In this document: positions 4,651 through 12,549 of the stretch, piece by piece | Numbering within the stretch: the stretch's first letter is position 1 | Layout of the letters: the number at the start of each line of letters is the position of its first letter | From: Bdellovibrionales bacterium | GTDB lineage: Bacteria > Bdellovibrionota > Bdellovibrionia > Bdellovibrionales > UBA1609 | Length of the DNA: 64,000 nt | NCBI GenBank assembly: GCA_965199825.1 | Contig: OZ241329.1 | Span: 288,001-352,000 of the forward strand | Reading direction: 5' to 3' | Notes under the pieces: model-generated | Seen by the model: the letters and a program-made list of their open reading frames with translations, nothing else | Told to the model about the DNA's origin: nothing | Databases searched by the model: none | Program-made: the position numbers and the translations under genes

Positions 4651-6660
4651 TCATTTCGATTTCATATTGCACGAACTTTTATTGGCCAAACAACTCAAAG
4701 CTTTTTGCGATTGAGCTGGCTGGCGGACTTGTGTTGCCACATTTGCTCTTTGGTTAATTTGATTCGGAACGTTTTGTAAATGGACTTGCGCCACTTGCTG
4801 AATGGGTTGCTGGATCTGATTTGTATTTAAGGCTGCGGGTGTAGCCTGACTCGTTTGTGCGGGCGCCGCTCCCTTTGCATCATTGTCATGAACGTGCAGA
4901 TAGCGCTCGATATCTGGAGGAAGTTTTCCTTTAAATACTTTTCCTGTTTTGATTTCAACGGGTAGTAGAGGCCGAATAGTTGAGGTCAATATCAGCTCGC
5001 GATCAGGTTCATCGCCTGGCTTCTCGTTCACCATTACAAATTCACCGTTATACCACTTGCGCATATACACTTTATGAAGTCGCTCAAAGATATTTTCTTC
5101 TTTGCTTCCAAGCTCGGGATGATTGAGATTGGAGACAGAAGCCACCGCACGTTTTGGATCTAGTCTGTGGCCTGGAAGATAATCTCTTAAGTCCACGGGT
5201 TTTCCATCTTTGTCGGTACTCATGAAATTACCACCGCCACCGGGACTTCCGTTAACGGGCACGCTACTGACTGTGTATCCGCCACCACCACTTGTGCCGT
5301 TAAGAACATCGGTGTTGTAACCTTGACCGCGACCTTGTCCACCGCGATCAGGCAATCCAAAGTTGGATCCGGCAGAAGCTCCACCCAAAAATTGACCTGA
5401 GTTTGCGGCCACACCTGGGTTGGTGGTCGGAGTCGCTGCACCACCTTGAATATTTTTGGCTGTGCCGTTGCCATCAAGTCCGGCGTTGGCGTTCACGTTT
5501 GCAGCACCAAGGCCCGCACCAAAGTTGGCTTTTGAAGAGAGCGATGACAGGGATCCGTCGCCCAAGCTTTGACCGTTGCTCACAGTTTGAGTTTTACAAA
5601 TGGGGTTGTTGGCATTTTGCGCCTGACCACAGTTGAGGCAGGCAGGATTTGCTTGATTGCTTGGTAAACTACAATCTACGTTAAACACCGCTTGTTTATC
5701 AAGATTTGAGTAGCCTGTGCTTGCTTTTGAAATGTTAGCGCAAAGGCTCGAGAGACTCCCGCCCACTGCACCTTGCATTGCTTGCTTCGACATTTGGGCG
5801 ACTTGTTCGTTGAGTTGTTGGCAACTGCCTGCAGTAGTTGAGGCATCACTCATCGATGTTGTCAGTTTTGCTTTATCATCGGGAGTAAGACCATCCATTT
5901 GATTTTTGTACTGACTTAATTCACACTTGTCCTGACACGAACTTTTCTCGCTATAACAAACACCAGCGAAAGTTGCGTTAGCTCCGGCGCTGCCGTAGCT
6001 GATGTCTTGCATGACATTACAAATTTGTTGAAGTTGTGCGGGATCGCCACCACTTGCACCAAGCATCAGTGTTCCACCGGCTGCAGCAAGCTGAGTAAGT
6101 CCTTGATATGCACTTTGCGCGTCACTTGAGCCAGTCATACAGGCGATAGGATTCGTGCAACAAGTTCTTGCACGTGCAGCTTGTTGGCGACACAAATTTA
6201 AGTCGTTTTGAGCTTGTGCAACGAGGGGACTGGGAGTCGCCGGAGTTGCTGCTGGTTGTTGTGTTTTGTTGGCCTGTTGGTTTGATTGTGATGTAGTCGG
6301 ATCGAATTTTAGGTCGTTTGATCCTGCTCCACCGAAAGAGCTTTCAACGGGTTCGGTATTAGACTTATTTCCCGGTGCTGGTGTTACTCGCCGCTGCGTT
6401 GTTGCCCTGCTTCGTGACGGGGTGTTGCTTCGAGTAGGATGGTAATCAGAATCTTCATCTGAAACGTTAGTACGCGGCTCCGGTCCTAGAGTTCGTTCCT
6501 GGTACGTCGAATTAGATATCGGGGGTATACTGATATTTACATTCGCTGGAGCTGCTGCTGGTTCCCCCGAAAAAGCACCGCCATCTTCAGCGAAGGTCTG
6601 GTGTAGTGGCAAGATTGTGCTGATAAAAAAAATAAACAGTATTCTTGCACAAAATGACAA
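4651..6660 (-). CDS. Large secreted low-complexity, Cys-rich hypothetical protein
   Basis: 669 codons; GGAG RBS; signal peptide; P/T/S/Q-rich linker, multi-Cys helical core, Gly-rich tract, Q-rich tail. Confidence 0.8.
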   Translation of the reverse strand: MSFCARILFIFFISTILPLHQTFAEDGGAFSGEPAAAPANVNISIPPISNSTYQERTLGPEPRTNVSDEDSDYHPTRSNTPSRSRATTQRRVTPAPGNKSNTEPVESSFGGAGSNDLKFDPTTSQSNQQANKTQQPAATPATPSPLVAQAQNDLNLCRQQAARARTCCTNPIACMTGSSDAQSAYQGLTQLAAAGGTLMLGASGGDPAQLQQICNVMQDISYGSAGANATFAGVCYSEKSSCQDKCELSQYKNQMDGLTPDDKAKLTTSMSDASTTAGSCQQLNEQVAQMSKQAMQGAVGGSLSSLCANISKASTGYSNLDKQAVFNVDCSLPSNQANPACLNCGQAQNANNPICKTQTVSNGQSLGDGSLSSLSSKANFGAGLGAANVNANAGLDGNGTAKNIQGGAATPTTNPGVAANSGQFLGGASAGSNFGLPDRGGQGRGQGYNTDVLNGTSGGGGYTVSSVPVNGSPGGGGNFMSTDKDGKPVDLRDYLPGHRLDPKRAVASVSNLNHPELGSKEENIFERLHKVYMRKWYNGEFVMVNEKPGDEPDRELILTSTIRPLLPVEIKTGKVFKGKLPPDIERYLHVHDNDAKGAAPAQTSQATPAALNTNQIQQPIQQVAQVHLQNVPNQINQRANVATQVRQPAQSQKALSCLANKSSCNMKSK

Positions 6661-6785: not shown

Positions 6786-7796
6786 TTAATTTTTTGCGCT
6801 GATGTGCGCCCGCATTTGTTGGGTACAGGCTTTCAGAGTATCGATCATCCCTTGATGTATCTGGATTCCGGAATTGACTGAATTCGATCCTGACCCTTTA
6901 TGAATACCTAATAAGGTTGCTGAATTTCCGTAATCGCAAACCACTGCCCCCCCACTACAAGCCTTTGCTGTATCAACCTTATAGAAGAAATTAAAATTTT
7001 CGTAAGCTTCGTCCATTGTTCCATCACCGAAAAAAAGTCTGCGTCCCGTAATATTCCTATCAACCGCAGAATAATCAGAAAGAGTGCTTCGGTCTTGAGC
7101 GGTACCACACTCAAGACCAGGCGTGAGTGAACATGCCACATGTATCTTTGGACACTGTTTTACTATCCCAATGTCGACAGGTTGCAGTGGGATAGGAGTG
7201 GGTTTTTTATTACATTTAGATTTGTCCACGACCAAGAAAGCGTAATCATTTTTAACCTCAGACAAAGCTCCTGAAGATGTACAAACCGCGAGGACATTCT
7301 GATCTGTACTGCATCCTTCAACGTGAACCTTGAAAAGCGTGGGATCGATTTTCCCCGTCTCGGGATCTATAGTAATGCGCTTTCCATCTTTATCCCTTAA
7401 CCCATGCAAAGCGGTTAGCACCACCCTAGAATTCGAGGCCGAAACACCTGCATCTTCATTGAATATAAATTGACCTGTATCACCGCCTCTAGGCCCGCCT
7501 AAAGCAACTACTCCAGAATATAGCTGATCCTCTTTTGTAGTAGCTTTACGAATATGACACTCGTTTTGAGTGAGAAGACTAACATTTTGTCTTAGGGTAT
7601 CAGAGTTATTTTTTATCACCATATCAGCCTGCGAATTACCACAGCCTTTCTCACCTAGAACGTAATTTCCAATTTTGAAATCTTTGAGCAGAACATCATG
7701 CAACCCCACAATGGAAGAATTCATCGCAGAAGCAAAGACAGGGTTGGATAGTAAATATACAAAAAGATATATCATTCTTGAATGGTTCTTAGTCAT
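6786..7796 (-). CDS. Secreted trypsin-like serine protease
   Basis: Triad-like motifs LTALH, DYAFL and DTAKACSGGAV; signal peptide; AAGGAG RBS before MTKNH. Confidence 0.7.
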   Translation of the reverse strand: MTKNHSRMIYLFVYLLSNPVFASAMNSSIVGLHDVLLKDFKIGNYVLGEKGCGNSQADMVIKNNSDTLRQNVSLLTQNECHIRKATTKEDQLYSGVVALGGPRGGDTGQFIFNEDAGVSASNSRVVLTALHGLRDKDGKRITIDPETGKIDPTLFKVHVEGCSTDQNVLAVCTSSGALSEVKNDYAFLVVDKSKCNKKPTPIPLQPVDIGIVKQCPKIHVACSLTPGLECGTAQDRSTLSDYSAVDRNITGRRLFFGDGTMDEAYENFNFFYKVDTAKACSGGAVVCDYGNSATLLGIHKGSGSNSVNSGIQIHQGMIDTLKACTQQMRAHISAKN

Positions 7797-8049
7797 TGAT
7801 GACTCCTTAGCAAATAGAAAGCCAAAACACATGCGGCATATGCGACCGATGCTATGCTAATTACGTTCGTCTACCATATTATGCAAATTACCAAATGGGT
7901 AAATCAAAGAGACATCAAAACCTAAAAAATTTAGGCCAATAGTTCAAACTCACCATTCTGCCTATTATTAAATTAATGGCCTACCAACTCACCGACTCAT
8001 CCATTTGTTGCGGACTTGGACCTGGGCCCGATGGCTTTGATTTATTCTT

Positions 8050-8420
8050 TTGGAAAGTCTAAGTTGAATTTGAGATAATGGTTAGACCTTTACCACTTAC
8101 CTGGATTATTCCCTCAAAATATAGATGTGATAATTCTCTAGAACCTCTCTGAATTTCTCATGCACATCTTTAGGTATAATAAAATCTAAATACCCCAGTT
8201 CGTCTTTCATCGTTAGAAAGGCAGTAGATGGTCTTTGGAAAACTGGTTTTACACCAGCAAAAATAACGTTTTCACCTTTTCCTTTTTGTCGGATGTCCGT
8301 AGATCTCAACGGCGGAAGATTTTTATTTTCTTCCCGGATGCCAAGCATGATGTTTCCAATGAGAGAATAAGAAAGTGTTCGATAGTCTGAAACGCCCTCT
8401 TCGTTAATTTCGTAAAGATG
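8050..8420 (-). pseudogene. dnaE2: C-terminal remnant of error-prone DNA polymerase III alpha (DnaE2)
   Basis: The frame reads EEGVSDYRTLSYSLIGNIMLGIRE...FAGVKPVFQRPSTAFLTMKDELG, matching the DnaE2 pattern DY..GLSL..HPM / QRP.TA...T.EDE.G; no upstream polymerase domain; boundaries approximate. Confidence 0.7.
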
Positions 8421-8616: not shown

Positions 8617-8886
8617 TTAATGTTTAATACGAAAGTGCATTCGCAACATACTGACGACGTGATTTAATTCTTTTAGAGCCGGTTGATCCCAATCCATAGA
8701 ATCAATAATCATGCGGGACAATCTGTCTGAGCTTTGTTGCCGTTTTTCTTCTCGCATTTCAAGTAACTCGCTTTTGATCACGTTCAAGTCTCCAAAGAGC
8801 AGGCCGTCTTGCTTTCGTTTTTTGATGTCATTTTCAACTTGAGTAAGCGCTCGTTCAATCGCTACTTTGATTTCTGCGGGCAGCAC
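8617..8886 (-). CDS. Putative toxin immunity protein, paralog 3 (Tsi6-like size and helical pattern)
   Basis: Shares LP.EIK.AIE.AL, L..I..EL.EM and IIDS.(D/E)WDQP.L.EL with the ORFs starting at 9222 and 9785. Confidence 0.65.
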   Translation of the reverse strand: MLPAEIKVAIERALTQVENDIKKRKQDGLLFGDLNVIKSELLEMREEKRQQSSDRLSRMIIDSMDWDQPALKELNHVVSMLRMHFRIKH

Positions 8887-8909
8887 TATTTAATCCTTAT
8901 TTTTGAAAG

Positions 8910-9222
8910 TTAATCCGCCTGAAGTTTTAAATTGAAGGTTTTTAAAGATTCTCGTTTCGACTGATAATGTTTCCTAAGAATCTTCGTCGCATTGCTAAAC
9001 TCCTTTAGTACAGGGTCATCCCAGTCCACTGAATCAATTGATCATATGGCTCAGCTGTGCAGAAACACCTTTTCTCGTTCCGCTTAACATCTCTAAAAGT
9101 TCTGCTCTCATGTATACCAGAGAGCCGTTGGGTATATTTTCGATCGTGGTGTTTCCAATAGCTTTATTAATTTGAGATAGCACAAAATTAATTGCCGCAA
9201 TTATTTCATCTGGTAGCGTCAC
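8910..9222 (-). pseudogene. Putative immunity protein paralog 2, with a +1 frameshift
   Basis: Removing one A near 9038 turns HMIN* into HMIIDSVDWDDPVLKEFSNATKILRKH, which aligns with both paralogs. Confidence 0.7.
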
Positions 9223-9340
9223 TTCAACCTTTCAACAAATTTTAGGTGTTCAAAAAGCTTTCCCAATATTAGGTACTGTTTACCACTAACCGAATGACAA
9301 AAATTCGGAGTAGTTGTCCCCTCAATTGCTTCGCGTAAGA
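9219..9340 (-). pseudogene. Toxin C-terminal remnant (NADase-like) overlapping the start of immunity paralog 2
   Basis: Translates as EAIEGTTTPNFCHSVSGKQYLILGKLFEHLKFVERLK*; its TGA overlaps the GTG of the next gene. Confidence 0.55.
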
Positions 9341-9512
9341 TGATAATTTAATCTGAGCAAGTCCACTACACTTGCCTGAGCAGTTGCGGGTTATTAAAGT
9401 AAACCTCGTGACTGTAGCAATGAAAATAAACTTGCTTATGTCCCGCTTGATAATGCCAAAAAATAAATCAAATTTAGTCTGTGGATATTTCGATTTTTAT
9501 TTCGCATTTTCA

Positions 9513-9785
9513 TTAGGGTTTTAAATGAAAATGCGACCGTAACAATTCACGGACCTTATTTAGCTCTATCAAAGACGGCTGATCCCACTCTAGAGAATCG
9601 ATAATGATGTAACTCAATTGCGGGGAAACTTGTGTTCTTTTCTCATCACGCATCTCGACCAATTCAGCTCTGATTCTATTTAAAGCACCATAATTTTGAT
9701 TTTCGTTAACGTTTGCTTCGACATCTTTTTCAACCTCCAACAATGCTACTTCGATTGCGGTCTTGATTTTTTCGGGAAGCATCAC
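9513..9785 (-). CDS. Putative toxin immunity protein, paralog 1
   Basis: 90 aa, clearly paralogous to 8617-8886; translationally coupled (GTGA) to the upstream toxin remnant. Confidence 0.65.
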   Translation of the reverse strand: MMLPEKIKTAIEVALLEVEKDVEANVNENQNYGALNRIRAELVEMRDEKRTQVSPQLSYIIIDSLEWDQPSLIELNKVRELLRSHFHLKP

Positions 9786-9890
9786 TTCAACCTTTCAACA
9801 AAGTTAGATTCAGCGAGTTTGCCAAACATAAAAGATTTTTGCCCACCGCCATTATGCCCAAAGTTGGAATAGTCTCACCTTCAAACATTT
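9782..9890 (-). pseudogene. Toxin C-terminal remnant (NADase-like), frameshifted
   Basis: Translates as MFEGETIP/NFGHNGGGQKSFMFGKLAESNFVERLK*; the 21 bp at 9782-9802 are identical to 9219-9239. Confidence 0.55.
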
Positions 9891-10461
9891 CAGGACAAAT
9901 TTACCCAAAACCTGTGTTCGGTTTTAATCTGGTAATGCAAGTTTACTTCCGGGGGTAGAGTGGTCAGAATTGTTCCGGAAGTCCCAAAACGTCCGGTTTG
10001 CCAGTACGCCGGATTTTTAAATTTCAATTCATAAGAAGTTTTCGAGGGCATAATCTGACTTTAAAAACTGTTCGAACGTTACACTAAAGGTGCCAGGAGT
10101 TTATGTCCGACGTCTGGAGAATGATCAGTGGAGCCTCGACGAAATAATTCAGGCGATGCTAAATTTCGTAATGGCTTGCTAGGCAAAGTTTTCTGCAATG
10201 GATTCATAAGAGTGAGAAAAAAACTCCCTTTGATTTTGCAATTTGAAATGCTTCACCAAAGCTCTTCATCGGAAGCGGCATTTGCGGCGAAACACATAGA
10301 TTATTCTCTCAAGTGACACTTGATAAGTGACGACGCCTGTTCGTCACAAAATATAATGGCAGCATTCTGCTTGCTGGATGTGGCACAGGCAATTAACAAA
10401 ATCGTAACCACGAAGGCGACGTGGAAATTATCAAAAACATAGCTTTGACTCAAGCGTTCCG

Positions 10462-11325
10462 TTACTGCTTCGGAGTAATCAAAAATTGGTGAGGGTTAAA
10501 CCGAACACTTTCGAAGATAATCTTGCGGCCGTAATCTTTGACTTCAAAATCTTTTGAAAGTTCATCTATAATAGCTTGGTCGTTTGGGGTGGTGGTTCGG
10601 CCTAATTCATCTTGAAATATCATTTCTGTGTACATCGAGCCGCCCGGAGCCAGTTTCAGTAAAAGAAATTTCCGAGTATCGAAACTGGCTGACACACCCG
10701 TTATCACAATACCACCCAGTTGTATTTCTGCAGTGGATGCTCCGAGTGCGGCCTGAAGGGATTTATCTTTAAATATCTTTTCAAAATTAAGTTGGTATAA
10801 ATAAAAATACTTTGTGAATGATCCTAAAGAATTGACCCACTGAACTCGCCAAACAAAAGGTTCAGGTAGCGGGCCTTCAATACTTTTAAAATTTCGAAGC
10901 GAATCAACGCGTTCGACCGTTGTCGTTGGCGACAAAGATTGAAGACGAGCTTCGATTTCTCCGATGACGTCATCTCGACCTGTGCCCCATTGACTTAGAA
11001 TGTCGATCAAAAAAAAGTTTTGTGCGATCGGATAAAGATACAAGGGTAGAAAGATATCAGGACCCGATCCTAGTGAGATCACCGACAGGCCGAAAGTTTT
11101 CGATGAATCAATTTGTGGTCTTGTACTAATAAAATTGGAAACATTGGCGTTAGGCCGTGCTGATCGTTGATCTATTTTATTTGCTTCAAGTAATTCCTGC
11201 CTTAAAGTTTTGAGTTGTTGTTCACATGCCAAGTTTGCACTTTCTGAATTAAAATAGTCCATGGATAAACAGATTCTACTGATTGAGAGAACTACCAAAA
11301 AAAGAATAGTTTTAGATTTTCGCAT
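10462..11325 (-). CDS. Secreted hypothetical protein, possible SAM-dependent methyltransferase fold
   Basis: Signal-like N-terminus; SLGSGPD motif-I-like loop, FFLID and LAPGG motifs. Confidence 0.55.
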   Translation of the reverse strand: MRKSKTILFLVVLSISRICLSMDYFNSESANLACEQQLKTLRQELLEANKIDQRSARPNANVSNFISTRPQIDSSKTFGLSVISLGSGPDIFLPLYLYPIAQNFFLIDILSQWGTGRDDVIGEIEARLQSLSPTTTVERVDSLRNFKSIEGPLPEPFVWRVQWVNSLGSFTKYFYLYQLNFEKIFKDKSLQAALGASTAEIQLGGIVITGVSASFDTRKFLLLKLAPGGSMYTEMIFQDELGRTTTPNDQAIIDELSKDFEVKDYGRKIIFESVRFNPHQFLITPKQ

Positions 11326-11853
11326 ATTTTTTGATACCAAATCAGAAGCGGCTGTCAATTAGTGACAACTTCGTGTCGTAAAAGTTGAGCGAGATCCAAG
11401 CTCAACTAACATTTATTTAAGCGAAGGGGTAGAATTCCGCTGGAAGTTTTCCTGCCTATCTTTGAATGCGGCTATTAAGATTCAAAATATTTTAGAAATC
11501 TGGCCGGCTAATAAAATCGATTTTACAGAGGCTCATTGGATGGATTTCGCTAGAGGATCTCCAAATCGCACGAATTTAATTGCCCACTGCTACTTTACAG
11601 TCTGATCCAGATTCCGCCATCTTGCACCCGGTGCGGATGGTTTAGATCTATTTTTTGAATGTCTTAATTAAATTTGATTTGATTATTAGAATAGATTTCT
11701 TCCAGCAAGCTCATATCTGAGAAAAAATTGTCCGAAGGATTAGTGTTCGATTGGTATAAAAATGAACTTTGTATTTGATAATTTGATTCAAAAAATGGCG
11801 TGAAGGCTAAAGAATCTCAAAAAAAAATTTACCGCCTGGGCTCTAGAAGTTTG

Positions 11854-11976: not shown

Positions 11977-12549
11977 ATGAAACAATATAAACTATTTAAG
12001 TTTAACACCTCAAAGTCGCATGGCGGAGCTGTCACTTCTGGAAAGCGAAAGACCGCCCGCCCTCTAAATAAAAAACGCCTTCACCATATCGTTATGAAAT
12101 CAAATTTAGCAAAAGGGCGTTACAGCTTTAAAAGCTTGAGGCATCGACAAAAGATTGAAACTTTAATTCATCGTAAAGCGCAGATTTATGGAATTCGGAT
12201 CGCCGAGTATTCGAATGTGGGAAATCATCTTCATCTTGTTGTCAGATTTCAATGTCCATATTTATTTAAAAACTTTCTTAAAGTCACAATGGGGTTGATT
12301 GCTCGCATTGTCACTCACGCCAAGAAGGGTAAACAGTTTGGACGATTTTGGGATGGACTGGTTTTTAGCCGAATCATTTCGCCTGGGAGAGATCAGGCTC
12401 GTATCTTTGAATACATTGCGGCCAACGTAATTGAATCCGAAATAGGAAATTTTTTTCGTCGTCAGTATGAATTAGAATGTGAGCGTAAATGGAAGAAAAG
12501 ACGACAGGCAGCGACGGATGACTCAAAATCTTTCCGTCCAATAGATTAA
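11977..12549 (+). mobile_element. REP-associated tyrosine transposase (RAYT; IS200-like Y1 HUH family)
   Basis: HHIVMKS, NHLHLVV (HUH), FW....FSR and EYIAAN (catalytic Tyr); no tnpB nearby. Confidence 0.85.

Follow-up and report, generated by a model that had tools for sequence, protein, structure and literature searches.

The 64,000-nucleotide stretch analysed here (the window) probably holds three immunity alleles as an orphan array on its minus strand. Each allele lies behind the remnant of its own former toxin tip, and the array likely protects the cell against lipoprotein toxins with NADase tips that other Bdellovibrionota carry. A sequence-only reading of the same DNA had proposed an orphan immunity array behind decayed tips, and this is supported by intact toxin-immunity pairs elsewhere, by the ranks of the remnants in a profile scan and by a genome in which no intact toxin was found.

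The array and its toxin-tip remnants

The three minus-strand paralogs, the middle one frameshifted, hold at the coordinates first given for them. imm1 (9513..9785) is an intact gene coding for a four-helix immunity protein of 89-90 amino acids, starting with the GTG at 9785 or the ATG at 9782, and imm3 (8617..8886) is likewise intact, with 89 amino acids. Between them, imm2 (8910..9222) is frameshifted near 9040: it reads in one frame from 9222 to 9034, then in another from about 9040 to the stop at 8910, with the homology ending near 8955. All three carry the IIDS.(D/E)WD.P.L.E motif noticed previously, the other two paralogs are 41% and 53% identical to copy 1, and they are the only members of the imm family in the genome (2.84 Mb, 100% complete). 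No differences over the breaks were found between contigs from two runs of one study (one of which is possibly the source), so the breaks are not the error of a single assembly.

The remnants in front of imm1 and imm2 had been described as NADase-like (TNT/Tse6-like) tips. This agrees with a scan of both strands of their contig (C1), for which nine intact homologous tips were made into a frameshift-aware profile: of 18,516 bins, the two remnants rank first (80.1) and second (54.1), ahead of a next best bin at 43.4, the background having a mean of 20.5 (sd 3.2). Each of the two ends at a stop overlapping an imm start, and both do read FVERLK at their end, with the TGA overlapping the imm GTG. 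Remnant 1 (about 9782..10000, minus strand) covers the catalytic half of a TNT/Tse6-fold NADase-like domain; according to the traceback it is about 72 codons long, which is longer than first noted, and contains four breaks (three frameshifts and one stop). Remnant 2 (9219..9323, minus strand) consists of the last 34 codons only, with a degenerate glycine motif, and is 44% identical to the end of an intact tip (locus L016, described below). While the placement of two paralogs behind remnants is correct for both, it is incomplete, as imm3 too has a tip end of 12 nt (8886..8897, minus strand), which reads R-I-K-stop and overlaps the imm3 GTG. This pattern occurs at 139 of the 160,535 ATG/GTG sites on C1, and it matches the ends of the intact toxins in L016 and L017. 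Since each start is preceded by a purine-rich stretch that includes the conserved arginine codon, the junction probably serves as the ribosome-binding site (RBS) of the imm gene, and tip end 3 has likely been kept as that of imm3.

The 21-bp direct repeat reported earlier was found again at 9782..9802 and 9219..9239 (minus strand). Both copies comprise the toxin end, the purine-rich RBS-like stretch and the imm start, and they are identical despite the saturated synonymous sites of the imm genes; a 52-nt repeat (79% identical) encloses them. Further upstream, a stretch resembling a lipoprotein signal (about 10350-10440) scores 27.4, compared with a mean of 19.5 (sd 2.9, maximum 28.1) for the bins of the window, and a search at the array for a remnant of the N-domain of the parent toxin (see next section) gave no significant match. 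A weak profile hit at C1:135,131 has no continuous ORF on that strand.

The surroundings of the array contain several other features. A fragment of the error-prone polymerase gene dnaE2 is located right after it (8106-8405, minus strand), with an intact dnaE2 elsewhere. A short repeat at 7686-7750 has copies near C1:487,000-489,700, with about 1.6 kb between two of them; it flanks 1,541 letters in contigs of other runs and is possibly the end of an element. An IS200-like or REP-associated tyrosine transposase is encoded at 11977-12549 (plus strand), and the three flanking, probably secreted proteins (4651-6660, 6786-7832 and 10462-11358, all on the minus strand) have no Pfam or NCBIfam match.

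Intact homologs and the parent toxin family

The pattern used for finding imm homologs gave 144 matches in metagenome contigs and 37 in genome contigs, of which 2 and 3, respectively, were confirmed; one of these five, L019, was then dropped as a chance motif match. Upstream DNA is absent from L015 and limited to 63 bases in L014. At L016 and L017, the imm homolog overlaps the stop of an intact toxin gene (578 or 573 aa), as at the array, and the expectation that homologs would be located downstream of toxin domains is thus confirmed. L018 contains a tip remnant fused in frame to an imm homolog, and belongs to a genome (G119) whose record is labelled Oligoflexia/Bdellovibrionota, the same phylum as the array genome. 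Three further toxin/immunity pairs are suggested solely by contigs of equal size (45,983, 4,046 and 36,402). The L017 contig (44% GC) comes from a record titled as a Streptomyces griseus MAG, in which it is likely mis-binned, and DarT/DarG-like genes are seen by inspection just upstream of its toxin pair.

The intact parent toxin (about 575 aa) has a lipobox, an N-domain of about 300 residues belonging to no known family, a PT-TG domain (PF14449) and a tip with the TNT/Tse6 fold. An RHS, PAAR or filamentous parent had been anticipated; the parent is instead a lipoprotein with PT-TG, and no RHS, PAAR or VgrG Pfam domain was found in 54 family members. The L016 tip taken alone reaches 28.7 bits with Pfam TNT (cut-off 27), the L017 tip and the whole proteins being below the cut-off, and PF14021 (TNT) matches 18 of the 54 members at E 0.01. 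For the tip, Foldseek retrieved Tne2 (E 2e-5) and Tse6 (E 3e-4), with the folds of fungal NADases and Rhs1-CT also matching; the comparison with Tse6 in VIA gave Z 11.6 and rmsd 5.3 over 141 aligned residues. The GG.RQ of the tip aligns, weakly, with GG.QQ of Tne2, which suggests an equivalent of the active-site glutamine, a residue described as conserved in section 8 of PMC10539506. By profile and fold, the parent tip would therefore be a TNT-like NAD(P)+ glycohydrolase, with predicted NADase activity.

Using the N-domain (residues 20-330) as a query, 66 homologs were found among 2,914 candidates, and the four that carry organism labels are all Bdellovibrionaceae or Bdellovibrionales. The whole protein matches 34 of 401 Bdellovibrionota genomes; for 24 of them the match includes the N-domain, and for the other 10 it is confined to PT-TG or the tip. 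With one query and this one other phylum, the N-domain was found in 0 of 301 Pseudomonadota genomes; plasmids and phages gave no match either, and viral contigs gave one weak hit, over the PT-TG region. No clear match to the N-domain fold was obtained in a search within the model of the whole 573-aa protein, so that the fold may yet be a known one, and the ESM Atlas returned only unnamed clusters (0.77-0.78). The lipobox pattern is present in 49 of the 66 proteins, and its Cys in at least 90% of 54.

The tips are polymorphic. The last 125 residues form 14 clusters, about four of which consist of truncated proteins, leaving about ten tip classes, and the class of the array accounts for 9 of the 66 family proteins. 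There are several TNT-like classes as well as DUF6973 tips, which by their motif we take to be lipocone-like, and others are unassigned. At most of the fetched loci a small gene abuts the toxin stop; it differs with the tip class and is mostly unrelated from one class to another. The imm family of the array follows its own tip class only (40 loci scanned). In L063, L064, L069 and L086, whose members have DUF6973 tips, the overlapping downstream gene is metallophosphoesterase-like and not a small immunity gene, and for some members with this tip the next gene has an N-terminal hydrophobic stretch. A scan of 43 loci for a second copy of any of the 66 known tips found none, and no upstream partner gene is conserved. 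Inspection of the neighbourhoods often shows toxin-antitoxin genes, resolvases and IS elements and, behind the toxin-immunity pair of L053, genes resembling SRAP, umuD and umuC.

As for delivery, none of the 25 carriers searched, nor the array genome, gave a match to the T6SS sheath protein VipB, with the E. coli control being detected; TraA (TIGR04566) was found in 0 of 26 genomes, in a search where no positive control was detected either. The array genome itself (G000, 100% complete) has no TNT, PT-TG or parent-family match, and no intact toxin was found in it. The closest described systems differ from the parent family in several respects. SitA lipoprotein toxins, according to the available text of PMC5562445, are found only in TraAB-bearing myxobacteria; they resemble the parent family in having a lipobox, a conserved N-region, a variable tip, a downstream immunity gene and a mobile-element neighbourhood, whereas the parent family has no conserved sitB-like upstream gene, carries PT-TG, and has many tips that are TNT-like rather than nucleases. 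Lipobox-bearing lipocone toxins and CapCone-2 systems of Bdellovibrionota are described in the available part of PMC12419801. These toxins share the lipobox with the parent family, some members of which carry DUF6973 tips, but have cystatin-like or linker-only N-termini (sections 29-30) in place of the N-domain of about 300 residues and PT-TG. Literature searches gave no account of the parent family, and it and its delivery route appear to be undescribed, although subscription journals or an unread supplement could describe the family.

The immunity protein and its predicted complex

Scans of the imm proteins against Pfam, NCBIfam and PDB sequences gave no significant family, consistent with the earlier suggestion that the immunity family may be unnamed. 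A search for homologs of a single protein returned only the query itself, while a profile search of 1.84 billion representatives yielded 14 proteins, two of them from the window, and a second search added five; P0013 and P0014, which are long and repeat-like, were left out of the imm homologs. Profile A2 had no match in 60 related genomes, and profile A4 matched 2 other genomes of 400 in the phylum. One protein, P0012 (257 aa), has the imm family fused to a putative second immunity domain, which is 45% identical to the gene found in L053 behind another tip class.

The model of imm1 is a four-helix bundle (pLDDT 80.9). The proposed fold likeness to Tsi6 was seen in part: Tsi6 chains are at ranks 3, 6 and 14 of the Foldseek results and VIA gives Z 8.9 (rmsd 3.4, 80 aligned), but all the Foldseek E-values are about 1 or worse, so that the match is not significant, and the VIA score is tied with those of unrelated helical bundles. 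Tsi6-containing clusters in the ESM Atlas, at 0.82-0.83 and so below 0.9, are a lead only. None of 12 imm members passes the cut-off of the Pfam HMM for Tsi6 (PF18660, 26.9 bits), nor is there a match at the locus, and hhalign comparisons with fetched PF18660 members are marginal, with a probability of 2.2% (P 0.021, 3 rows) or 0.2% (P 0.37, 7 rows). In a weak alignment, the position of the basic residue of the Tsi6 family (Lys62 in Tsi6, which lies in the ..KEF motif and is placed in the active site of the toxin) is occupied by M, L or V in the imm proteins. Two PF18660 genes of one genome (L087 1477-1830 and L089 1393-1830) have no Tse6-like tip directly upstream. PDB 7DMS, a 93-aa protein encoded at the end of a T6SS cluster, ranks beside Tsi6 against the imm model, and Tsi6 is not mentioned in the available main text of its paper (PMC13079257).

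The model of imm1 with the intact tip from L016 (P0062) scores 0.85, the best of three controls scoring 0.00; 116 of 157 solved complexes attain the mark used for a complex, as do 2 of 215 mismatched pairs. At least 92% of contacts are shared between runs, and the partner pLDDT is at least 86. In the model, residues 57-66 of imm1, which comprise the IIDS.xW motif at the end of helix 3, face G498-R499-F500 of the tip, with D62 making the closest predicted contacts. Of the 22 predicted interface residues, imm1 and imm3 have 10-12 in common with the cognate proteins, and imm2 has 4-6, while conservation is no higher in the interface columns (0.54) than in the others (0.59). The complex resembles the solved one of Tse6 and Tsi6, and this resemblance may account for the passing of the mark; the score indicates likeness rather than binding by this copy of imm.

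The Tse6 (Tne1)-Tsi6 pair of Pseudomonas aeruginosa (PDB 4ZV0) has the same layout as the array, an NADase-fold tip followed by a four-helix immunity protein of about 90 residues, and here too the end of helix 3 is predicted to face the cleft. It differs in that the imm proteins are not PF18660 and that the parent has neither a PAAR domain nor a T6SS; in addition, M, L or V replaces the aligned basic residue of Tsi6, and it is the acidic D62 that is closest in the model. The imm protein may thus be Tsi6-like in its working, yet we do not file it in PF18660.

History and meaning of the array

Orphan CT/immunity cassettes occur in Rhs and CDI systems, classically downstream of the intact gene for the parent toxin. 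Such orphans, and those of Serratia rhs1 as presented in the available text of PMC10539506, share with the array divergent immunity genes standing in tandem without a cognate toxin, and one Serratia orphan immunity gene is reported there as shown to protect against a foreign NADase. The array differs from them in having no intact parent toxin upstream or elsewhere in the genome, for which reason its tips cannot be a swap reservoir, and in its other toxin carrier.

The values of pN among the three alleles (0.33-0.40) are similar to those obtained with distant cognate genes (0.36-0.44), and synonymous sites are saturated, which indicates that the three are old alleles rather than products of a recent triplication. 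That 21 bp are identical between two of the junctions suggests either a more recent recombination there or RBS constraint. A tree of 20 imm rows does not discriminate between one and several origins, and a promoter scan gave no signal above shuffles.

The array could also be the debris of three cassettes on a decaying mobile island, in which the imm genes merely outlasted toxins that broke first and protection is gone. We consider this unlikely, though it would account for the frameshift in imm2, the dnaE2 fragment just downstream of the array when an intact dnaE2 is present elsewhere, the broken family members at L055, L058, L062 and L018, and the lower GC content at the array (38.8% vs 42.5%). 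It fits less well with remnant 1 having four breaks in 72 codons when no break is found in the 89 codons of the neighbouring imm1 or in imm3, or with the toxin-end/RBS junction being kept in all three units when nearly all other toxin sequence is gone. Overall, there are 4 breaks in 106 tip codons and 1-2 in 267 imm codons, a weak contrast (p 0.025-0.06) which is moreover biased, because the toxin has to be the first of the two to break, with or without a later benefit. Retention of the imm genes for protection is therefore plausible, with one of the three copies being a pseudogene.

The target of the protection is likely to be related bacteria rather than prey. Cross-reactivity of the imm proteins with NADase effectors of prey (Tse6/Tne-type T6SS), by which they would protect a putative predator, is very improbable: the imm fold does resemble that of Tsi6, and the tip fold is common to Tse6, Tne2 and Rhs1-CT, but by hhalign the imm sequences are only marginally linked to Tsi6 (P 0.02 and 0.37), the remnants fall within the lipoprotein clade of Bdellovibrionota, and the immunity proteins of Tne families are reported to be mutually unrelated in the available text of PMC10539506. 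The earlier proposal of protection against prey toxins accordingly finds no support, the cognate toxins being in the same phylum and in 0 of the 301 Pseudomonadota genomes. It is highly improbable that the imm proteins are small helical proteins with some other job which merely adjoin toxins, for instance metal binding as in the four-helix SfeP (7DMS). This protein, described in the available text of PMC13079257 as an Fe(II)-binding effector, is the top fold match (Foldseek E 0.77; VIA Z 9.3, rmsd 2.9, 81 aligned), but generic four-helix bundles score alike, the homologs with readable upstream DNA (L016, L017 and L018) follow a toxin tip, and both the overlap of stop and start and the complex model speak against it.

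Under the preferred reading of an orphan immunity array, each intact pair would be a cassette of two translationally coupled genes, situated on a mobile or defence island, and its toxin would be exported in lipoprotein form and transferred to related neighbours. There, the cytoplasmic four-helix protein of about 89 residues would bind the tip through the end of its helix 3, against the G-R-F motif, and is predicted to block the NAD-binding cleft. Divergent cassettes may have been stacked by recombination at the conserved toxin-end/RBS junction, after which the tips would have decayed, with imm1 and imm3 being kept and imm2 lost. A wider and more tentative reading, which we hold to be quite possible but would not yet favour, is that Bdellovibrionota use a class of polymorphic lipoprotein toxins of their own as weapons against one another, the N-domain of about 300 residues delivering them without a T6SS or TraA/B, and that the array genome represents an unarmed lineage which keeps a set of immunity alleles to several variants of the NADase warhead.

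Orphan immunity arrays being already known, it is the parent toxin family, present in about 6% of the sampled genomes of the phylum (24/401), that is worth following. If the proposed reading is true, the family would represent a new route of lipoprotein toxin transfer, accompanied by an unnamed immunity family against TNT-like NADases, and would help in studying how bacterial predators and their relatives compete or discriminate kin.
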